Below, one piece after another: positions 31-8,703 of a stretch of DNA of 9,920 bases. Within the stretch, counting starts at the first letter, position 1, and each line of letters starts with the position of its first letter. The position numbers and the translations under genes were made by a program. Location: IMG/VR virus record IMGVR_UViG_2671180283_000021; one strand, written 5' to 3'. This stretch comes from a virus. Lineage: Duplodnaviria; Heunggongvirae; Uroviricota; Caudoviricetes. Below the pieces are notes generated by a model. The model made no database searches. It saw nothing but the letters and a program-made list of their open reading frames with translations, and was not told the origin of the DNA.

Positions 31-1644
31 TTATTTATTGGTGAGTACTACGTTCCATGGCAGGAGTTCATCAACTCGGTTGGAAGGCCATTCCGGCAGT
101 ACGCTCAGGATATGGCGCAGATACGCTTCCGGATCGATACCGTTCAGACGGCAGGTGCCGATCAGCCCGTACAACAGTGCTCCACGCTCGCCGCCGTGAT
201 CGCTGCCAAAGAACATAAAGTTTTTCTTTCCGAGACAGACTGCACGAAGCGCTCTTTCCGCAGCATTATTATCCGCCTCCGCCAGACCGTCATCACTGTA
301 ATAACAGAGGGCATCCCACTGATTCAGTACATAGCTGAACGCTTCGCCCAGTCTGGATTTTTTCGACAGCGTACCATTCTTCTCCACCATCCATTCATGC
401 AGCGACGTCAGTAACACTTTGCTTCGCTGCTGCCTGACGGCAAGACGCTCTAACTCCGGTAATCCCCGTATTTCATCCTCGATGGCGTACAGTTCACTGA
501 TTCGCTTCAGGGCTTCTTCTGCCGTCGCACTTTTGCTGCTGATGTATACATCGTGGATTTTTCGCCGGGCATGGGCCCAGCACGCAACTTCTGTCAGTGC
601 ACCACCTTCACGTTCTGCACTGAACAACCTGTCGTAACCTGTGAACGCATCCGCCTGCAGGATACCCCGGAAGGGGCGGAGGTGTTGCTCCGGGTGTTTC
701 CCCTGCCGGTTCGGCGAGTACGCGAACCAGACCGCTGGAGGAGATGACGAACCCACATTGCGATCATCCCGGACATACGTCCAGATACGCCCTGTTTTCG
801 CCTTTTTCTGACCCGGTGCCAGTACCTTTACCGGTGTGTCATCAGTGTGAACCTTGCGGGTGTTCATTACATAACGGTACAGGGCATCATTCACCGGTGT
901 CATTAACTGGCAGCACGCGTCAACCCAGTTGGAGAGTAAGGCCCGGCTCAGTTCGACACCCTGGCGGGCAAAGATTTCACTCTGACGATACAGTGGCAGA
1001 TGTTCGCAGTATTTTCCCGTTAACACGCGGGCAAGTAATCCGGGGCCCGCGATACCACGCTCTATCGGGCGGGACGGCGCCGGTGCTTCAACAATACAGT
1101 CACATTTTGTACAGGCTTTTTTTACCCGTTCTGTGCGGATCACTTTCAGGGCACTGCTCACCAGTTCCAGCTGTTCAGCGCTGACTTCCCCCAGATAATC
1201 CAGCTCACCGCCACACTCCGGGCAACAGCTTTCTTCTGGCTCCAGGCGGTGTATTTCACGGGGAAGGTGTGCCGGTAACGGACGACGATGGCGCGACTGT
1301 CGCAACTGGCGGGGAACCTGAGGATCGTCTTCCCGCCCACTGTAACGATCGCTGTCCTGTTCACGTTGTTTCAGCAGAGCCTCAGCCAGTTCAACTTCAC
1401 GACGCAGTTTTTCAGAACGGGTACCGAACAGCATCCGGCGCAGTTTTTCTATCTGAGCCCGCAGATGTTCTATTTCCCGTTCATCTTCTTCGATCTTTTC
1501 TTCGGCACGTGTCAGTGCAGAGCGCAGGAAGGCTTCCGTCTCTTCAACCAGACTCAGTTGCTGGTCTTTCTGACGGAGGGCTTCAGCCTGCTCAGAGAGC
1601 AACCTTTCCAGCTCTGCGATGCGAATGAGGTATTTCTGACTCAT
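31..1644 (-). CDS. tnpC: IS66-family transposase TnpC (ORF3, DDE transposase with zinc-finger motifs)
   Basis: 537 aa. N-terminal coiled-coil/leucine-zipper-like region (LRAQIEKLRRMLFGTRSEKL), CxxC...CxxC motifs (CCPECGG, CTKCDC), and length and organisation characteristic of IS66 TnpC. Confidence 0.9.
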   Translation of the reverse strand: MSQKYLIRIAELERLLSEQAEALRQKDQQLSLVEETEAFLRSALTRAEEKIEEDEREIEHLRAQIEKLRRMLFGTRSEKLRREVELAEALLKQREQDSDRYSGREDDPQVPRQLRQSRHRRPLPAHLPREIHRLEPEESCCPECGGELDYLGEVSAEQLELVSSALKVIRTERVKKACTKCDCIVEAPAPSRPIERGIAGPGLLARVLTGKYCEHLPLYRQSEIFARQGVELSRALLSNWVDACCQLMTPVNDALYRYVMNTRKVHTDDTPVKVLAPGQKKAKTGRIWTYVRDDRNVGSSSPPAVWFAYSPNRQGKHPEQHLRPFRGILQADAFTGYDRLFSAEREGGALTEVACWAHARRKIHDVYISSKSATAEEALKRISELYAIEDEIRGLPELERLAVRQQRSKVLLTSLHEWMVEKNGTLSKKSRLGEAFSYVLNQWDALCYYSDDGLAEADNNAAERALRAVCLGKKNFMFFGSDHGGERGALLYGLIGTCRLNGIDPEAYLRHILSVLPEWPSNRVDELLPWNVVLTNK

Positions 1645-1674
1645 GACCGTTTTTATAATGCGGTCAGGAGTTTT

Positions 1675-2025
1675 TTACAACATTGTCAGTGAGTTACGGC
1701 TGGATGTTTTTGGCTGACGCCAGTCCAGCTTATCGAGGAGCATTGCCAGTTGCGAGCGGGTAATGGATACCTTGCCGTCACGTACCGCAGGCCAGATAAA
1801 CTGGCCTTCCTCCAGGCGTTTGGTGAACAGGCACAGACCATCAGCATCAGCCCAAAGAATTTTGACGGTGTCACCCCGTCGGCCACGGAAGATAAACAGG
1901 TGACCGGAGAAGGGATTATCATTCAGCACATGTTGTACCTGTTCTCCCAGTCCGTTGAAGGATTTACGCATATCGGTAACGCCGGCAACGAGCCAGATAC
2001 GGGTACCTGATGGGAGTGAGATCAT
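1675..2025 (-). CDS. tnpB: IS66-family accessory protein TnpB (ORF2)
   Basis: 116 aa, with the characteristic small IS66 Orf2 sequence (WLVAGVTDMRKSFNGL...ILWADADGLCLFTKRLE). Sits between tnpA and tnpC, and its start overlaps the tnpA stop. Confidence 0.9.
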   Translation of the reverse strand: MISLPSGTRIWLVAGVTDMRKSFNGLGEQVQHVLNDNPFSGHLFIFRGRRGDTVKILWADADGLCLFTKRLEEGQFIWPAVRDGKVSITRSQLAMLLDKLDWRQPKTSSRNSLTML

Positions 2026-2447
2026 CTTCCCCTCCCGGTCAGTTCACGGATCAACACTGTGAGCAGCTCTGGCGATGGATTTTCCAGCGTCATGTTACCG
2101 TGACGGAATTCCACCTTGCAGGAACTGGCACTGACTCTGGTCTGAGTGGAAGTGGATAAAGACGGCGCAATGGCCGCCACAGGTTCTTTCTGCTCATCCG
2201 GCGTTATTTCTACAGGTAATAATTCAACGCCAGTGTCAGAAGAGGTCGTTACCGGAAGACGCCGCGAAACACGCCCTTCGTTCTGCCAGAGCCTGAGCCA
2301 TTTGAAAATAACATTATCATTGACGCCATTTTCACGTGCAATCTGTGCAACACAAGCTCCAGGTTGTGATGCCAGTTCCACCATACGAAGTTTGAATTCA
2401 TTCGAATAGTTTTTACGAGGTTCTTTTCGCCAGTCCTGTAATTCCAT
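2022..2447 (-). CDS. tnpA: IS66-family TnpA (ORF1, HTH DNA-binding protein)
   Basis: 141 aa, with an N-terminal HTH-like segment (YSNEFKLRMVELASQPGACVAQIARENGVNDNVIFKW). First gene of the IS66 three-ORF module. Confidence 0.85.
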   Translation of the reverse strand: MELQDWRKEPRKNYSNEFKLRMVELASQPGACVAQIARENGVNDNVIFKWLRLWQNEGRVSRRLPVTTSSDTGVELLPVEITPDEQKEPVAAIAPSLSTSTQTRVSASSCKVEFRHGNMTLENPSPELLTVLIRELTGRGR

Positions 2448-2508
2448 ACTTAGATGTCCGTCTATATCAGATGGGCGTCTAAGTTACCAATTCTCGTCTG
2501 ATGGCTAC

Positions 2509-2532
2509 ATACGGCGGTCAGTTTACGCTTAC
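2509..2532. repeat. IS66 terminal inverted repeat (end proximal to tnpA)
   Basis: The reverse complement of ATACGGCGGTCAGTTTACGCTTAC matches window positions 1..24 at about 20 of 24 positions. It lies 85 nt upstream of the tnpA start, which is typical for IS66. Confidence 0.7.
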
Positions 2533-2713
2533 CAGGACTGAGGCCTTTCTGAAACTGGTATCCACGTCTGCGGTAATTCTGAATCAGCCACTCGGCCTGT
2601 TCTTCAGTGCATTGGTCATGCTGGTACCAGTCATATTTGAATGCGTGAGAGCGCCGTCCGTGTCTGCTGGCAGGGTCGGCATCAGAATTGTGGTGTTTGG
2701 TATTGTGCGCCAT
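2533..2713 (-). pseudogene. Possible 3'-truncated ORF remnant interrupted by the IS66 insertion (unknown protein)
   Basis: A minus-strand frame with a plausible ATG at 2713 (MAHNTKHHNSDADPASRHGRRSHAFKYDWYQHDQCTEEQAEWLIQNYRRRGYQF...) runs directly into the IS66 inverted repeat at 2532. The supplied longer ORF (to 2794) begins at a TTG inside a terminator T-tract and is unlikely to be real. No family recognised. Confidence 0.3.
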
Positions 2714-2783
2714 CGGTTGTCTCTGCTGGCGCAGCAGGTGCCAGTTGTTCAGGCTGGCGTGTGGATTGTAAACCAGAACGCCA

Positions 2784-2811
2784 GGAAAAAACAAAACCCG
2801 CGAAGCGGGTT
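2784..2811 (-). terminator. Rho-independent terminator downstream of the R-M operon
   Basis: GC-rich hairpin AACCCGC-GAA-GCGGGTT (2795..2811). On the minus strand it is followed by TTGTTTTTTCC, the reverse complement of 2784..2794. It lies 73 nt downstream of the endonuclease stop. Confidence 0.6.
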
Positions 2812-2883
2812 AGTAAAAATGTACTGAAGTCAATGACGTGCCATCACAGTTAAAATATGACAGACTCTATTTACGTAGAGATG

Positions 2884-3762
2884 TCAGACTGCAAGATCCA
2901 AGGGAAGATCAGAAATATCCTTTAATCTTTTACCATTAACCATCACGGAAAGCATGTCAGCTGCATCGCTGAGCCCCAGTATTTCAACTGCTGATATAAG
3001 TTCATAAAGCGCAAAATGATACACGCAATCTATATCACCAGTACCAAGAGCAATAGACGCCAGACGACTTGGAGTAGGCTCAGCAGTAACAACCATTACA
3101 TGAGGGAGATTTCCCTTACGGTTGCGAATAAGATTTAATGCCTCAGAACGAGCATTCTGGGCCCGGTCGCTTCTTATTGTCCATTTGCAGGAAATACTTG
3201 CGTGTAATATTGGTTTCCCACCATTCGAACTCCTGAGAGCTGACATGCGGGTAACAGAATCATCCACCAGTAATTCAGGACTGTTGATAACTTGATCACA
3301 TTCAGGTTCTCTTTCAACAATAATATCTGGTGAAATCGTATAATCACTCCCCAGTGCAGCAGCTAGCTGAGGATTACTTTTTGCAGCACTATCCAATGCT
3401 ATAAGATGGGCATATTGTTCATATTTAGCTATCTCTAATCTGTTTCTACCAGAAACCTGATGTACATTCCATTTTCCAGGGCGTAAGTGGCTGAGTTTAA
3501 AAAAGGTTTTTTCTATAAACTCTGCGCAGATACTCTCAAACTGATTACCAGATGTTTGCCCTGCAACACGTTCACCAATCGTTTCAGCCTGCAAGAAGCG
3601 AGCAATTTCTCTTGCTATAGCTTTACTGTTTTTGTTACTGCTATCTGCGTTACTAACAACTCCGGCAGTATTAATTGTGAGCGTATTCAGTAACAATTGG
3701 GCATGAAACTCCTTTCTGGCTTCAGCAAAACCAACTATGCTGTCAACCAAATCTCCATTCAT
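2884..3762 (-). CDS. Putative type II restriction endonuclease (PD-(D/E)xK fold), partner of the adjacent C5-methyltransferase
   Basis: Lies immediately downstream of the methyltransferase. The ATG at 3762 is 13 nt after the methyltransferase stop and is preceded by AGGAAA. Candidate catalytic motifs are SPDIIVERE and SCK, with a Glu 14 residues after the Lys, a spacing I recall from the Cfr10I/NgoMIV-like family. The supplied ORF extends to 3897 but that portion overlaps the methyltransferase by 122 nt. Confidence 0.6.
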   Translation of the reverse strand: MNGDLVDSIVGFAEARKEFHAQLLLNTLTINTAGVVSNADSSNKNSKAIAREIARFLQAETIGERVAGQTSGNQFESICAEFIEKTFFKLSHLRPGKWNVHQVSGRNRLEIAKYEQYAHLIALDSAAKSNPQLAAALGSDYTISPDIIVEREPECDQVINSPELLVDDSVTRMSALRSSNGGKPILHASISCKWTIRSDRAQNARSEALNLIRNRKGNLPHVMVVTAEPTPSRLASIALGTGDIDCVYHFALYELISAVEILGLSDAADMLSVMVNGKRLKDISDLPLDLAV

Positions 3763-3775
3763 TTCTGGATTTCCT

Positions 3776-4900
3776 TCAGGCTGCTTGACTATTCTTACTG
3801 ATGTTATTCTTATACCGTCCCTGCAAAACTCCATACACATATTGTGCGATTTTTGCTGCAAATAGCGGTGGAACAGCATTCCCGATCTGCTTTGCAATCT
3901 CAGTTTTTGAACCGGTAAAAATGAAATTATCAGGAAAAGACATTAATCTCGCTGCCTCACGATGAGTTATTGGCCGATCCTCTTCCGGATGTAAATATCG
4001 CCCTTTCTCCGGTTTGAAAAACTCAGTACGAATCGTTACTGAAGGTCTGTCCCACCACAGACGTCCAAACAAATCGGTCCCTCCAGATTTCTTTTTTAGC
4101 CAGCACGCCGGGGTTATATCAGGTCTTTTTTTCTGTAAATCGAAACGGTTACCTCCTGGTGGAACCGCTTTATATCGCTCCAGAGAAACAGGTGTGGGAT
4201 TACGCCCAAAATGTAAGTTCAGCGGAGGAAGTTCATTACGAATATCAGTTCCAACAGGAGCAGGTAAGTCACCAATTGCATCACGCGTACAGACCCATTC
4301 AGGCAAAGCGACATCCTTATCAGGGGAACGATGCGTTGGTGCTGGCGGGAACGCCGGAATACTATGCACATCGAAGAGTTCTCGTTTGATACCGATTGCT
4401 ATCGTTCGTTTTCTTGTCTGAGGTACTCCATAGTCAGCAGTATTCAACACCATTGGATTAAGCAGAATAAAGCCCATGGATTTCGCTCTAAACGTAATGT
4501 CCGCAAACTCATCGCTTATCAGCAATCCGGGGACATTTTCCATGACGAACATACAAGCCCTTGAACGCTCAATGACATCCATATAAGGCTCCCACAATGC
4601 TCTTCGGTGATCACCATAACGATTCTTATTCAATAAACTGAATCCCTGACACGGGGGGCCACCTATGACCACATCAGCCTCAGGAACAGTATTGCTGGAT
4701 GCCCACTCCTCAATATTTGCCTGAACTCCATGCAAACCAAAATTGGCATTGTAGGTATTTATAGCTGCAGCATTATTATCAATAGCAAGGATACTTTCAA
4801 AGTAGTCAGACATCTCTCCATGAAGAAAACCATAAGATAATCCACCTGCCCCACAAAAGAGGTCTATCACTCTGAATTTATTTAATTCTTTCATCCGCAT
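3776..4900 (-). CDS. DNA (cytosine-5)-methyltransferase
   Basis: 374 aa with canonical C5-MTase motifs: motif I FCGAGGLSYGF, motif IV GGPPCQGFS, motif VI ENVPGL, motif X QIGNAVPP. RBS GAGG lies 7 nt upstream of the ATG at 4900. Confidence 0.92.
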   Translation of the reverse strand: MRMKELNKFRVIDLFCGAGGLSYGFLHGEMSDYFESILAIDNNAAAINTYNANFGLHGVQANIEEWASSNTVPEADVVIGGPPCQGFSLLNKNRYGDHRRALWEPYMDVIERSRACMFVMENVPGLLISDEFADITFRAKSMGFILLNPMVLNTADYGVPQTRKRTIAIGIKRELFDVHSIPAFPPAPTHRSPDKDVALPEWVCTRDAIGDLPAPVGTDIRNELPPLNLHFGRNPTPVSLERYKAVPPGGNRFDLQKKRPDITPACWLKKKSGGTDLFGRLWWDRPSVTIRTEFFKPEKGRYLHPEEDRPITHREAARLMSFPDNFIFTGSKTEIAKQIGNAVPPLFAAKIAQYVYGVLQGRYKNNISKNSQAA

Positions 4901-4983
4901 CCATATGCCTCAGATTAATGTTGAGCGTCTTACAGGACGCGTAATGTTAACTGGGGCTTTCTCTATCTGCCTTTTGGTGTTCA

Positions 4984-5008
4984 TGCCTGAGGCAGACAGC
5001 CTCAGGCA
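4984..5008. other. Perfect 9-bp-stem hairpin (TGCCTGAGG-N7-CCTCAGGCA) in the QueH/methyltransferase intergenic region
   Basis: Inverted repeat read directly from the sequence, with no adjacent U-tract on either strand. Possibly a weak terminator for the QueH-like gene or a regulatory structure. Confidence 0.35.
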
Positions 5009-5078
5009 CCCGCAGCAATTCTACTTAACTCACGTCACCTCGCCAATATGAAATCAATCAGAAAGGTGATCCATAAAA

Positions 5079-5765
5079 TCACTCCTTCTCTTCTTTTCCG
5101 TAGTGGAGTTGGCCAATTTTGATAAGAGGGCGTCCCTGAGATTTGCGGTGTAGATTGGTATCGCGCAGAGAATACACACAGCCACAATATTCCTGCTGAT
5201 AGAATTTTTCGCGCTTGCTGATTTCAATCATACGGGACGAGCCGCCCTGCTTGCGCCAGTTATAATCCCAGTACACCATACCCGGATAATGCGCAACAGC
5301 TCGCCGCCCACACTCGTTAATCTGCTGCATATTTTTCCAGCGTGAAATGCCCAGTGAACTGCTGATCACACTGAAACCATTTTCAGCAGCGTACAACGCT
5401 GTCCGCTCAAAACGCATGTCAAAACACATGGTACAACGGATCCCCCTCTCAGGCTCCCATTCCATTCCTTTGGCACGTTCAAACCAGTTGTCGGTGTCGT
5501 AATCAGCATCGATAAACGGCACGCCGTGTTGTTCAGCAAAGCGAATATTTTCATCCTTACGAATTAAATACTCTTTCTGAGGATGAATGTTCGGGTTGTA
5601 GAAAAAGATGGTGTAGTCGATTCCCGAGGCCTGAAGCGCCTCCATCACTTCACCGGAACATGGAGCACAGCAAGAGTGCAGTAGTAGTTTGTTTGCCCCG
5701 TTTGGGAGCTCCAATTTAGGCCGTTTGAAATCAGCAATAGTCATAAATATTTTTATTGGGGTCAT
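5079..5765 (-). CDS. queH: QueH-like protein (DUF208 family; epoxyqueuosine reductase QueH homolog)
   Basis: 228 aa. N-terminal motif [11 protein letters not shown] plus further conserved Cys (RCTMCF, EYCGCVY), consistent with the Fe-S cluster ligands of DUF208/QueH as I recall them. No clear SD at either candidate start (5765 or 5744). Confidence 0.6.
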
Positions 5766-5918: not shown

Positions 5919-6344
5919 CTAGTAACGTCTAAAATACCTAACATTTCCTTGATAAAATGCCAGTACACGCTGCATAGCTTCGCTCTTCCGGCACTCGCGA
6001 CAGATTATGTTTAGGCGCCTGTCGTAGCGGCGTATTTCGCCGTCTGGTAATAGCCAGATAAGGTCCGGATCAACCACAGATGGTTTCTTCAGCTTTGCCC
6101 TTGAGAGTTTTTTGCGGGCGTTTTGCCAGTCCTTGCGCGCCTGCTCAGACGGGAATACTCCGTAACCGGAATTGTAAACATCACCACTGGCGGCCAGCTC
6201 CATGCATAAACGACCGACAGACGCATGACTGACACCAATTTCATCCGATAACTGCCGAATCGTGCCTCGTCCGTTAAGGCGTACGAATTCCACGATCAGC
6301 CCTTTAATTTTTTCCCGCTCTTCTTGTGTAAAAACTTTTGCCAC
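5919..6344 (-). CDS. Hypothetical protein with N-terminal winged-helix/HTH-like segment and basic C-terminus
   Basis: 141 aa with a GTG start at 6344 preceded by a strong SD (CAGGAGGG, 4-nt spacer). HTH-like segment GTIRQLSDEIGVSHASVGRLCMELAASGDV. C-terminal CRECRK and basic residues. No family recognised. Confidence 0.45.
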   Translation of the reverse strand: MAKVFTQEEREKIKGLIVEFVRLNGRGTIRQLSDEIGVSHASVGRLCMELAASGDVYNSGYGVFPSEQARKDWQNARKKLSRAKLKKPSVVDPDLIWLLPDGEIRRYDRRLNIICRECRKSEAMQRVLAFYQGNVRYFRRY

Positions 6345-6384
6345 AAGCCCTCCTGAAAATTACCTCATGACCAGAAATTAACAC

Positions 6385-7347
6385 TTACCCCCTGAAGCCC
6401 GGCGGAATTTCAGTGTCCGGTTCAGAAATGTGATTCACGCAACGCTGCGCAGGTGAACGCCCCAGGCGGATAACCAGTTCATCCCATTTTTCCCGGAGTT
6501 TTGCCGGACTCATGATGTTTTTTACCCAGAACGAATCCCGCTGGAGACGCCCAAACATTTCACAAATTTGTCTGTGAGTTCTGCCATCCAGCATCCGCAT
6601 TGTGCGAACGTCATTGGCCCATGCTGTCCAGTTGGGTTCTTTCGGTCTAGTGATCTCGCCATCATCGCTGGCCGCCTGCTCGTAAAGACTCACGATTCGT
6701 CCCCAGATCCACTGTGCGCACACCAAATCTTCCTGACTTCCCCACTGGCGTTTTTTCGCACTGAACACAACCGCGTCAGGGTGTCGGGTTAAAAAATCCT
6801 GTTCAGCCATCTGCGGGTCCGGTTGCGAAGCGTCCGGACAAGAAGATCTTTTATCTGACGGATCAGGTTTTAATACTGACGGATCGGGGTCAATCATCGC
6901 CCCCCTAATCGGCAGTTTTTTATCAACAGTTGATCCATCAAAATTTAACGGGTCAACCGTTGAGGGGTCAATATTTGACGGGTCAACTGTTAACGGGTCA
7001 TTTTTTGCCGGGCTAATTTTTCTTTTCGGTTTATATGACTCACGCGCCGCCGCCGCAGCTGCTTCGAGTTTTTCCACATTAAGCCGATAGATATTGCTTA
7101 CATTACGCCCACCGACCTTACGCTCTTCCTTCGTCAGCCAGCCCTCTTTCGCCAGTTCTGCAATAGCCGATTTCACTGTGGATTCACTTCTTGCACCGAT
7201 CTGACGCCGGATAGTTTCAATGGCAGGCCATGACACGCCCTCGTCATTGCTGTAGTCTGCAAGACGGGCCATAACCGCCACCCTGGATAAGATCATGCCG
7301 GTGAAGGCGCACCCTTCCCAGACAAGACCATGAAGCTTGCTGCTCAT
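6385..7347 (-). CDS. Phage replication initiation protein: N-terminal HTH (HTH_36-like), pentapeptide-repeat linker, C-terminal DnaT-like domain
   Basis: Preferred start is the ATG at 7347, preceded by GGGGG; the supplied ORF begins at a GTG at 7362. The N-terminus (VSWPAIETIRRQIGARSESTVKSAIAELAKEGWLTKEE) resembles the replication-initiator wHTH. The C-terminus (...VNHISEPDTEIPPGFRG) closely matches what I recall of the E. coli DnaT C-terminus (...SEPDSQIPPGFRG). Internal xxVDP repeats are encoded by the iterons. Confidence 0.7.
   Translation of the reverse strand: MSSKLHGLVWEGCAFTGMILSRVAVMARLADYSNDEGVSWPAIETIRRQIGARSESTVKSAIAELAKEGWLTKEERKVGGRNVSNIYRLNVEKLEAAAAAARESYKPKRKISPAKNDPLTVDPSNIDPSTVDPLNFDGSTVDKKLPIRGAMIDPDPSVLKPDPSDKRSSCPDASQPDPQMAEQDFLTRHPDAVVFSAKKRQWGSQEDLVCAQWIWGRIVSLYEQAASDDGEITRPKEPNWTAWANDVRTMRMLDGRTHRQICEMFGRLQRDSFWVKNIMSPAKLREKWDELVIRLGRSPAQRCVNHISEPDTEIPPGFRG
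6855..7040. repeat. Putative origin of replication inside the rep gene: direct repeats, four tandem 15-bp iterons and an AT-rich tract
   Basis: CTGACGGATC occurs twice (6855..6864 and 6876..6885). Four tandem 15-bp units run from 6947 to 7006 (AACGGGTCAACCGTT, GAGGGGTCAATATTT, GACGGGTCAACTGTT, AACGGGTCATTTTTT), with the core (C/G)GGGTCA at a 15-bp period. They are followed by an AT-rich stretch (TTTTTTGCCGGGCTAATTTTTCTTTTCGGTTTATAT). The layout resembles lambda ori within gene O. Confidence 0.6.
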
Positions 7348-7369: not shown

Positions 7370-7795
7370 TTAGTGCATCACCACAGCATTCCCTGCCGGG
7401 CCGCCGCGATTCATCTGGTCATACAAAACAACCGCTGACGCAACAAAATCATCGACATCCTTCACCAGCCGATCCCTCCGTTCGACGATCTCACGGTAAT
7501 ATTCAGAACTGTGGCTGCGCATACGGGCCACCAGCAAAGGCGGCATCGCCTTTTCGATCGCCGGTAACAGAGCCTGCATTTTTTCAACAGCATCAGGGGT
7601 GTCTTTATCCAGCCAACGGAAAATTTTCTGGGTATTACGGGCCAGGGCTTCCGGATGGCTGTCGTCGTACAGTTCAGGGAACGTCATCCCCAGTTCGAAA
7701 TAAGTCCGGGCTATTTCAGCTGCAGGAACTTTCTCACCATCAGGGTATGCCCAGGCATTCATCGCCATGCGGATGTGCTCATGTTTGATTTTCAT
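7370..7795 (-). CDS. ydaT: YdaT-like protein (Rac prophage YdaT family; CII-like regulator, historically annotated as putative toxin)
   Basis: 141 aa with N-terminus MKIKHEHI, matching my recollection of E. coli K-12 YdaT. Lies immediately downstream of the YdaS-like gene, overlapping it by 17 nt. Confidence 0.75.
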   Translation of the reverse strand: MKIKHEHIRMAMNAWAYPDGEKVPAAEIARTYFELGMTFPELYDDSHPEALARNTQKIFRWLDKDTPDAVEKMQALLPAIEKAMPPLLVARMRSHSSEYYREIVERRDRLVKDVDDFVASAVVLYDQMNRGGPAGNAVVMH

Positions 7796-8102
7796 GAATC
7801 ATTTGCCTCTTGATGCTTCGGGTATGATCGTTTTCGTCATTTGGTTGCTTCATCGACATATTCTGCGAATAACATGACGAGCGTCGTAAGTATGTCCAAT
7901 CAACATCAGGACGAAGTTCTTCACACAGGACACCACCTTTTGTTGCTCGTTCAATCGCAGGACATCTCTCAGCAGGTAACTGACGTACACCTTTGATCCA
8001 TTGATTTACGCTTGGAGGAGATACACCTAAAAGCCTAGCCATTGCTGATTGCCCACCGACAACAGCACAAGCTCGTTTGAATGAATAGTTATCTTTTTTC
8101 AT
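7779..8102 (-). CDS. ydaS: YdaS-like Cro-type HTH regulator
   Basis: Sequence MKKDNYSFKRACAVVGGQSAMARLLGVSPPSVNQWIKGVRQLP is a Cro/CI-type HTH. Preferred start is the ATG at 8102, with GGAG 8 nt upstream; the supplied ORF starts at a GTG at 8123. Divergent from the repressor gene. Confidence 0.8.
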   Translation of the reverse strand: MKKDNYSFKRACAVVGGQSAMARLLGVSPPSVNQWIKGVRQLPAERCPAIERATKGGVLCEELRPDVDWTYLRRSSCYSQNMSMKQPNDENDHTRSIKRQMIHENQT

Positions 8103-8129
8103 CGAATGAACTCCAAAAAACACGCAACA

Positions 8130-8159
8130 ATATTAGGTTTAGCCTAATGAAATTGTCAA
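8130..8159 (-). promoter_or_regulatory. Putative sigma70 promoter for the ydaS-ydaT-rep operon (rightward-operator analog)
   Basis: On the minus strand: -35 TTGACA (reverse complement of 8154..8159), an 18-nt spacer, and -10 TAATAT (reverse complement of 8130..8135). Overlapped by the palindrome ATTAGG-N5-CCTAAT (8132..8148). Confidence 0.5.
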
Positions 8160-8226: not shown

Positions 8227-8703
8227 ATGCTTAGTGGTAAAGACTTAGGCCGAGCGATAGAGCAGGCCATTAACAAAAAAATTGCATCAGGAGCCGTCAA
8301 ATCAAAGGCGGAAATCGCACGTCATTTCAAAGTCCAACCACCATCAATCCATGACTGGATTAAGAAAGGTTCGATAAGTAAAGACAAACTTCCAGAACTA
8401 TGGCGTTTCTTTTCTGATGTGGTTGGTCCAGAGCATTGGGGGCTTAACGAATACCCCATACCAACCCCATCCACTTCAGATACAAAAAGTGAACTTTTAG
8501 ACATAAACAGCCTTTATCAAGCCGCCTCTGATGAAAAAAGAGCAATTGTGGCTTTCATCTTATCTGGAAATGCTACGGAGCCTAGTTGGGTTGATCATGA
8601 CGTTCGCGCCTACATTGCCGCAATGGAAATGAAGGTAGCTAACTATCTGAAAAATCAAGAATCAAAACGGAAAAGCCAGAACATCACCAAGACAGGAACT
8701 TAA
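8227..8703 (+). CDS. racR: RacR-like prophage repressor (XRE/CI-type HTH)
   Basis: 158 aa, with an HTH segment (SKAEIARHFKVQPPSIHDWIKKG). Divergent from the ydaS/ydaT-like genes, with operators on both flanks. Length and synteny match Rac prophage racR; the symbol is assigned by context, not by sequence identity. Confidence 0.7.
   Translation: MLSGKDLGRAIEQAINKKIASGAVKSKAEIARHFKVQPPSIHDWIKKGSISKDKLPELWRFFSDVVGPEHWGLNEYPIPTPSTSDTKSELLDINSLYQAASDEKRAIVAFILSGNATEPSWVDHDVRAYIAAMEMKVANYLKNQESKRKSQNITKTGT

Follow-up and report, generated by a model that had tools for sequence, protein, structure and literature searches.

The DNA analysed here, referred to as the window, is a stretch of 9,920 nucleotides (nt) from the virus record IMGVR_UViG_2671180283_000021 of IMG/VR (Caudoviricetes), and it forms part of a Rac-like lambdoid prophage of Escherichia coli whose early-right operon lies on the minus strand. 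The operon includes rep, a gene whose product belongs to the PHROG family phrog_391, 'replication initiation O-like' (E = 2.4e-115). This gene is found 100% identical in E. coli EC21Z-078, where it is annotated as a 963-nt coding sequence, and at least 80% of it was found in 1514 of 5426 complete E. coli genomes, O157:H7 strains among them. Rep consists of an N-terminal winged-helix domain and a C-terminal domain related to that of lambda O, joined by a linker, and the DNA that encodes the linker carries an array of 15-bp repeats followed by a short core with GATC-containing sites (Table 1). The array (6928-7017) and the core (6836-6894) together probably constitute the replication origin of the prophage, placed in the linker-coding part of the initiator gene, and the repeats very probably serve as binding sites in such a lambda-style origin. 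This reading comes from sequence comparison and is based on the position of the array, its conservation, its frozen synonymous sites, its linkage to the N-domain, the conserved core, and the lambda-O-like C-domain.

The periodicity of the array is apparent from several analyses. Tandem Repeats Finder reports a 15-bp period over 6944-7021 (5.2 copies) and a stronger 30-bp period over 6938-7012. When the core TTGACCCGTCAA is searched for with up to two mismatches, five array sites are found at exact 15-bp steps, starting at 6930, 6945, 6960, 6975, and 6990; the whole window holds seven matches against 0.9 expected, a number reached by none of 200 shuffles, and six of the seven fall in the array, where one site matches on both strands. 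The coding-strand sequences of the units are AATGACCCGTTAACA, GTTGACCCGTCAAAT, ATTGACCCCTCAACG, GTTGACCCGTTAAAT, and TTTGATGGATCAACT, with a very degenerate unit before them and a decayed one after, and their translation is NDPLT VDPSN IDPST VDPLN FDGST VDKK, one period being five codons. A preliminary description of the window had recognized four tandem 15-bp repeats containing (C/G)GGGTCA on the plus strand, all within the rep coding sequence, and had noted that such a period would yield a pentapeptide linker. These four are the best units of the array, everything lies inside the minus-strand open reading frame (ORF) of rep, and the in-frame translation agrees with the predicted linker.

The outer TGA/TCA triplets of the units are symmetric, and the array as a whole is an imperfect inverted repeat at 6925-6991, with 33-nt arms that are 76% complementary. 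Single-strand folding of the region is modestly better than that of shuffles (z = -2.5), which is attributed to the inverted units; a cruciform or hairpin at 6925-6991 is possible and may just reflect the palindromic nature of the units. An excess of units with a reverse-complemented centre was considered and rejected, given a score of 42 against a null of 39 +/- 3.7 (centres CCCG 33 versus CGGG 11, and CCCC 12 versus GGGG 5), and because this test came out at chance, no claim is made about site orientation or dimer binding. The Rfam scan of the array region returned no match.

Relatives of rep were collected by their N-domain, six from phages and 80 from species-representative Enterobacterales genomes, and those with an N-domain at least 68% identical to that of the window (from Erwinia, Mixta, Edwardsiella, Morganella, and a Klebsiella phage) are referred to as the window clade. 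An array with a 15-bp period is present at approximately nt 300-400 of the gene in 79 of the 87 homologous genes, most of the exceptions being truncated genes, and statistics on copy number and core are given for the 77 arrays to which a register could be assigned. Repeat number, which the preliminary description had proposed to compare across related prophages, varies from two to nine copies per array with a mode of four. Moreover, the E. coli allele L090 (ETEC6335) is exactly one 15-bp unit shorter (948 versus 963 nt), lacking the equivalent of window positions 6973-6987, and copy number is therefore polymorphic even within E. coli. The core shared by the units, TGA-N4-TCA, occurs 13.3 times per kb in the array stretch of these genes and 0.44 times per kb outside it.

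The place of the array within the gene is that of well-known phage origins. In gene coordinates, it occupies nt 331-420, and the annotated iterons or origins occupy nt 349-433 in lambda O, 365-441 in phi80 gp15, and 353-497 in P22 gp18, all of them mid-gene and directly after the sequence encoding the DNA-binding domain. Like the array of the window, ori-lambda comprises four or more repeated sites, each with dyad symmetry of its own, and its repeats lengthen a protein linker with a copy number that differs between relatives; for instance, lambda has four iterons and Shiga toxin (Stx) phages have six, the two extra iterons adding 13 residues to O (PMC7466680). The A/T-rich stretch by which the lambda iterons are flanked towards the C-terminal part of the gene has a weaker candidate counterpart in the window. 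In addition, the C-domain of Rep is homologous to those of lambda O (BLASTP, 35% identity over 148 aligned columns, E = 5e-26) and phi80 gp15 (36% identity, E = 4e-26), and the gene order of repressor, cro-like gene, cII-like gene, initiator, and Ren-like gene is shared with lambda.

There are also differences from lambda, the first of them in the DNA-binding domain. The Phage_rep_O profile (PF04492) is matched by lambda O, P22 gp18, and phi80 gp15 alike, whereas the N-domain of Rep does not match it and aligns with the lambda O N-terminus in hhalign with a probability of only 0.1. Instead, Pfam HTH_36 matches Rep residues 25-71, the only match of Rep above cut-off. An AlphaFold2 model of the N-domain (pLDDT 85) shows a helix-helix-helix-helix-hairpin-helix order with the beta-hairpin wing as expected, and a Foldseek search with this model retrieved only generic winged helices of the ArsR/MarR/PadR type (E ~1e-3, TM 0.5-0.6), plasmid Rep proteins not being singled out. 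The sites themselves are 10-12 bp long at 15-bp steps in the window, whereas those of ori-lambda are 15-19 bp long at 20-24-bp steps, and the A/T-rich region, 78% AT in lambda, is weaker in the window and framed by two extra iteron-like GATC sites. Furthermore, a P gene or the DnaB-like gene 12 lies directly downstream of initiators of the lambda type, whereas rep is followed by a DUF977/Ren-like gene and carries a DnaT-like tail. The predicted origin would work like ori-lambda yet stands outside the O/Phage_rep_O family, whose defining DNA-binding domain was looked for in Rep and not found. Accordingly, the likeness to lambda gene O drawn in the preliminary description holds as a functional analogy of position, constraint, and C-domain, but not as family membership, given the HTH_36 domain and the missing P.

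Conservation extends beyond the array into a core on its C-terminal side. A GATCC(G/A)TCA site follows the array in a constant frame in all 77 relatives, the distance being exactly 42 nt in 67, and 61 of the 77 have a second copy at a distance of 24 nt from the first (21 nt in the window). Information content remains high to approximately 45 nt past the first of these sites, and AT content across the family peaks 45-90 nt after the array (0.58-0.68). GATC density in the core is 2.08 per 65 nt versus 0.34 gene-wide, a count in which the anchor pattern itself contains GATC. The window core consists, in order, of ATTGACCCC, GATCCGTCAG, TATTAAAACCT, GATCCGTCAG, and ATAAAAGATCTTCTTGTCCGG, and a counterpart of the isolated iteron-like copy that opens it is conserved in relatives of the window clade. 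Read on the other strand, CTGACGGATC is present in exact form at 6855-6864 and 6876-6885, 21 bp apart, and the pair by itself is weak evidence, as 21 of 200 shuffles also give two matches. The preliminary description had listed these as two upstream copies of a sequence beside the tandem repeats; the copies do exist and are exact, but rather than upstream extras they are iteron-like sites inside the conserved core, downstream in the sense of the gene. The clustering of GATC in the window alone, three within 41 bp, was likewise considered and is not significant (P = 0.23), and it gains weight only from conservation in the family. A Dam-like N6-adenine methyltransferase gene follows rep in approximately 38 of the 86 family loci (L003-L088), and phage-encoded Dam and origin control are possibly linked.

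The stretch at 6840-6879, 62-68% AT, belongs to the least stable 4.5% of the 40-mers of the window by nearest-neighbour stability, and the window has several other stretches of far lower stability. An A/T-rich tract following the repeats on the N-terminal side, at 7003-7040, had been proposed in the preliminary description, and with 66% AT versus 52% for the window it falls among the least stable 10% of 40-bp windows but outside the 12 least stable. Its counterpart in relatives is not AT-rich. Being neither conserved nor exceptional, this tract is rejected as the unwinding element and probably lies outside the conserved origin. As in lambda, a location C-terminal to the array is more likely for this element. 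The core can be aligned loosely with the AT-rich regions of lambda and phi80, at their right end, a match that is suggestive only.

The most serious residual rival to an origin is that the sites, although bound by Rep, serve autoregulation, copy control by handcuffing, or a transcriptional roadblock, with the actual origin elsewhere in the prophage. Iterons of plasmids also act in copy control, and the A/T-rich element by the array is weak in comparison with the stretches just mentioned. However, the array is located exactly at the origin position of lambda, phi80, and P22, the Rep C-domain is lambda-O-like, the conserved GATC sites and A/T core always accompany the array, and over 25 kb of the identical prophage the 12-mer motif occurs only here. 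Pure control sites are, on balance, distinctly unlikely. Iteron plasmids of the RepA/RepE/pi/TrfA class resemble the window in having tandem repeats beside an A/T-rich element and a winged-helix initiator. Their iterons are usually 17-22 bp long, approximately two helical turns apart, and outside the rep gene, and their origins usually include DnaA boxes; the window differs in its period of 15 bp and in the location of the sites inside the coding sequence.

The second alternative is that the repeats are nothing but a slippage-prone peptide linker (xDPSx) between two domains, with no function as DNA. The TGA-N4-TCA motif keeps to a single reading frame (312 of 314), a D/E-x-S pattern is conserved at the protein level, more DP motifs occur in the linker beyond the array, and copy number varies as slippage would predict. 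Codon usage points in the opposite direction. The serine at codon 4 of the units is encoded by TCA in 296 of 322 cases (92%), versus a background of 16% in the same genes, and that at codon 1 by TCT in 217 of 238 (background 9.5%); lysine is AAA in all 224 cases (62%), and aspartate is GAC in 82% (45%). Codon 1 ends in T in 90% of units while its residue varies among eight (S, F, I, V, P, T, Y, and N), and serine and leucine alternate by a single-base change from TCA to TTA. Residues of the neighbouring N-domain that do not vary served as a control; in this gene set, their most frequent codon accounts for a mean share of only 0.52, and serine columns use up to six codons. Synonymous sites are thus saturated across the set except inside the repeats, and since the unit codons are frozen across genera while invariant N-domain residues use mixed codons, this comparison indicates that the repeats are held constant as DNA. 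Slippage could homogenize the units of a given array, but it cannot preserve the same codons across genera.

More distant HTH_36 initiators (~40% identical) carry entirely different repeats at the same place, namely unrelated palindromic 21-24-bp tandem repeats at gene nt 273-380: GGGCAGGAGCTGCCC in Min27 O (L094), and CTGTGCC...GCACAG in ZF40 gp14 (L097) and S107 orf65 (L098). A mere linker is hence very improbable, and the pentapeptide repeat of Rep is a by-product of in-frame DNA sites. Moreover, because these distant members have unrelated repeats at the same position, their sequences suggest that gene-embedded origins are general for the HTH_36 initiator class, a Stx2 phage included.

The repeats can also be linked to a particular part of the initiator. 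Units of the window clade begin with TTGA in 30 cases and with CTGA in none, whereas the other 69 genes have 31 TTGA and 206 CTGA, and three types of C-domain (lambda-O-like, Phg_2220_C, and others) are mixed in both N-domain clades. As judged from these counts, the repeat subtype follows the N-terminal winged-helix domain and not the interchangeable C-domain, and in lambdoid phages iteron sequence classically follows the N-domain of the initiator. This linkage bears on the idea that another protein binds the sites, such as a host factor, the cII-like YdaT, or the Ren-like DUF977 protein. Nothing direct speaks for such a binder, although the DUF977 and YdaT-like proteins encoded beside rep are putative DNA-binding proteins. 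Phages with this type of array differ in the genes around it, and neither gene is annotated in the 2.5-kb flanks of rep in SfIV, phiNP, and LV-2017; the sole constant partner of the array is the N-domain encoded just upstream, whose clade the repeat subtype tracks. DnaA boxes are not enriched in the window (TTATNCACA with at most one mismatch, 10 matches versus 8.8 expected), and the two one-mismatch matches that flank the array (6920 and 7070) are not significant. A different binder is accordingly as improbable as a mere linker. Least probable of all is a role of the TTGAC-containing units in transcription, as promoters or a terminator inside rep. Although a promoter-like site (6971-6942, TTGACC-18-TAAATT) and a terminator-like hairpin (6961-6947) do lie in the array, the two promoter-like matches of the region are below the shuffle expectation of 2.7, the array is kept in the major clade whose units (TCTGACGCGTCAAAA) have no TTGAC hexamer, and the hairpin is a by-product of palindromic units.

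For the origin reading, the following course of events can be inferred. The Rep N-domain would bind TGA-N4-TCA sites, in the window clade in the form TTGAC-NN-GTCAA, and the sites occupied would be four to six at 15-bp steps, the one isolated copy, and the two GATCCGTCA sites. Aided by transcription that starts at the early promoter ahead of the ydaS-like gene, the resulting nucleoprotein complex would then open the A/T-rich GATC stretch at approximately 6836-6876, and the lambda-O-like C-domain and the DnaT-like tail would bring in the host replicative helicase. The promoter-like site between racR and the ydaS-like gene, by analogy with the position of lambda pR, is likely to be this early promoter, from which transcription would pass through rep and the origin. 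As a 15-bp spacing corresponds to approximately 1.4 helical turns, neighbouring sites are turned ~150 degrees from each other and lie on nearly opposite faces of the helix, and for this reason the geometry of the complex may differ from that of the lambda O-some. The 30-bp super-period suggests that alternate sites form two sets.

Recruitment of the helicase at the predicted origin would also differ from that in lambda. According to phmmer, the Rep tail matches the last 21 residues of the DnaT chains 2ru8, 6aep, and 9zbt, and it corresponds to positions 159-179 of the NCBIfam DnaT model. The same tail terminates K-12 YdaU, which is otherwise unrelated and precedes YdaV, and 35 of 77 family genes carry it, in combination with each of the three C-domain types. 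Lambda P is downstream in none of 34 tail-bearing genes; conversely, a lambda-P homologue follows tail-less relatives in the window clade, and all six P-linked genes are without the tail. This mutual exclusion of tail and P, together with the tail shared by the YdaU-YdaV pair, suggests that the tail may be a portable recruitment peptide for a host or phage helicase loader or primosome. A 2026 paper on the preprimosome structure assigns no role specifically to the last 20 residues of DnaT. In the window, neither P nor a DnaC-like gene (ydaV) follows rep, whereas the E. coli alleles L090-L092 (89-95% identical), which do bear the tail, have a DnaC-like ydaV between rep and the DUF977/Ren-like gene. 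The window prophage has either lost its loader gene or needs none, and the functional phages SfIV, phiNP, and LV-2017 are likewise without one.

Several points weigh against the assignment of the repeats and core as an active origin. The linkage of repeat subtype to the N-domain rests essentially on a single phylogenetic split, and as the motif stays in the same frame, conservation of protein and of DNA is not fully separable at non-synonymous positions. The stretch at 6840-6879 is weak beside the AT-rich region of lambda, and an O-some-like wrapped complex is not guaranteed at a spacing of 15 bp in comparison with ~20-24 bp in lambda and phi80. In addition, the window prophage may be defective, because ydaV is absent and an IS66 element and a restriction-modification cassette are nearby, and the origin may be inactive here. 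Finally, the searchable literature (queries on the SfIV genome, oriJ, lambdoid iterons, and HTH_36) does not describe the origin of this family, the older subscription literature being outside this scope, and earlier predictions in that literature are possible.

A further proposal, somewhat speculative and rather unlikely as a whole, is that HTH_36-type initiators represent a separate and widespread class of gene-embedded phage origins without a P-type loader, which would combine three features. In the first, short palindromic sites at 1.5-turn spacing would assemble in a geometry other than that of the O-some. In the second, the pair of GATC sites would frame the unwinding element and place initiation under Dam/SeqA control, with which the frequent Dam-like methylase gene after rep fits. 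In the third, a portable 20-residue DnaT-mimic tail would recruit the host DnaC-DnaB or restart primosome. This threefold proposal is less probable by far than the assignment of the origin itself.

What differs from lambda is the DNA-binding domain of the initiator, the geometry of the repeats, and the predicted recruitment of the helicase; the principle itself is old, and the paradigm of an origin inside the initiator gene is extended rather than overturned. Modules regarded as 'non-lambdoid' retain the lambda architecture with a different DNA-binding domain, and the array illustrates clearly how coding and probable binding-site constraints can act on the same DNA at once. Related modules occur in Shigella serotype-converting phages, and modules with the same content of YdaT-like and HTH_36 genes beside the repressor occur in Stx phages, namely the Eru8 and Eru11 units, a likeness drawn from gene content alone. 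A 2022 survey of Stx phages deals with gene content only, calls the Eru replication proteins unstudied, and does not mention iterons (PMC8951638). With the candidate origin and its recognition sites located, a testable handle becomes available on prophage replication after induction, which bears on toxin dose and prophage mobility.

The Rac prophage of K-12 (oriJ, YdaU-YdaV) is of the same prophage type and shares the racR, ydaS, and ydaT immunity region and the DnaT-like tail. Its oriJ was considered as a direct precedent and rejected, as the initiator differs: K-12 YdaU is a DUF1376 protein, of which BLASTP aligns only the last 19 residues with the window Rep. Because similarity is confined to these residues, the rep gene of the window is a different replication module in the same slot as K-12 YdaU-YdaV.

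Table 1. Coordinates of the replication gene, the candidate origin, and neighbouring features in the window
Feature	Position	Strand	Remarks
rep gene	6385-7347	-	320 aa, 963 nt, ATG at 7347; lambda-O-like replication initiator; from ORF list and translation
N-terminal winged-helix DNA-binding domain, aa 1-105	7033-7347	-	Proposed iteron reader
Lambda-O-like C-terminal domain, aa 153-300	6448-6891	-	BLASTP
C-terminal tail, aa 300-320 (AQRCVNHISEPDTEIPPGFRG)	6388-6450	-	Matches extreme C-terminus of host DnaT
Iteron array, six 15-bp registers	6928-7017	-	Gene nt 331-420
Four strong units	6943-7002	-	Cores 6945-6956, 6960-6971, 6975-6986, 6990-7001
Degenerate unit with inverted centre	6930-6941	-	Fifth site
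Sixth register, barely recognizable	7003-7017	-	Degenerate unit
Decayed partial seventh unit (GTTGATAAAAAA)	6916-6927	-	In register after the array
Isolated iteron-like copy (ATTGACCCC)	6886-6894	-	Abuts first GATCCGTCAG; direct repeat D3, identical to 6964-6972
First GATCCGTCAG site	6876-6885	-	Origin-core anchor; Dam site GATC at 6882-6885
Second GATCCGTCAG site	6855-6864	-	GATC at 6861-6864; as TGATCCGTCA fits TGA-N4-TCA
Candidate DNA-unwinding element	6836-6876		A/T-rich, between and just past the GATCCGTCAG sites; ends GATAAAAGATCTTCTTGTCCGG; third GATC at 6845-6848
A/T-rich tract of the preliminary description	7003-7040		N-terminal side of array
ydaT/cII-like gene	7370-7795	-	Operon with rep
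ydaS/cro-like gene	7779-8123	-	Faces racR
Promoter-like site TTGACA-18-TAATAT	8130-8159	-	Between racR and ydaS-like gene; consensus scan
racR	8227-8703	+	NCBIfam RacR equivalog, E = 1.2e-73
DUF977/Ren-like gene	5919-6344	-	Next after rep, 40-nt gap (6345-6384)
QueH gene	5079-5765	-	Further along, past DUF977/Ren-like gene
Match to sok antitoxin RNA	4831-5011	-	Rfam, 61 bits versus gathering score of 59; between QueH and C5-methylase genes
C5 cytosine methylase gene	3776-4900	-	Overlapped by NgoMIV-type restriction enzyme gene
NgoMIV-type restriction enzyme gene	2884-3897	-	Overlaps C5 cytosine methylase gene
IS66-family transposase gene	31-1644	-	Small accessory ORFs alongside

Downstream of the replication genes, the minus strand carries a block of cargo genes at 31-4900, and E. 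coli EC21Z-078 has different genes in the corresponding place. The match to sok overlaps the start of the methylase ORF, and small ORFs at 5035-5227 possibly represent hok or mok; hokD is present in a related prophage (L002).

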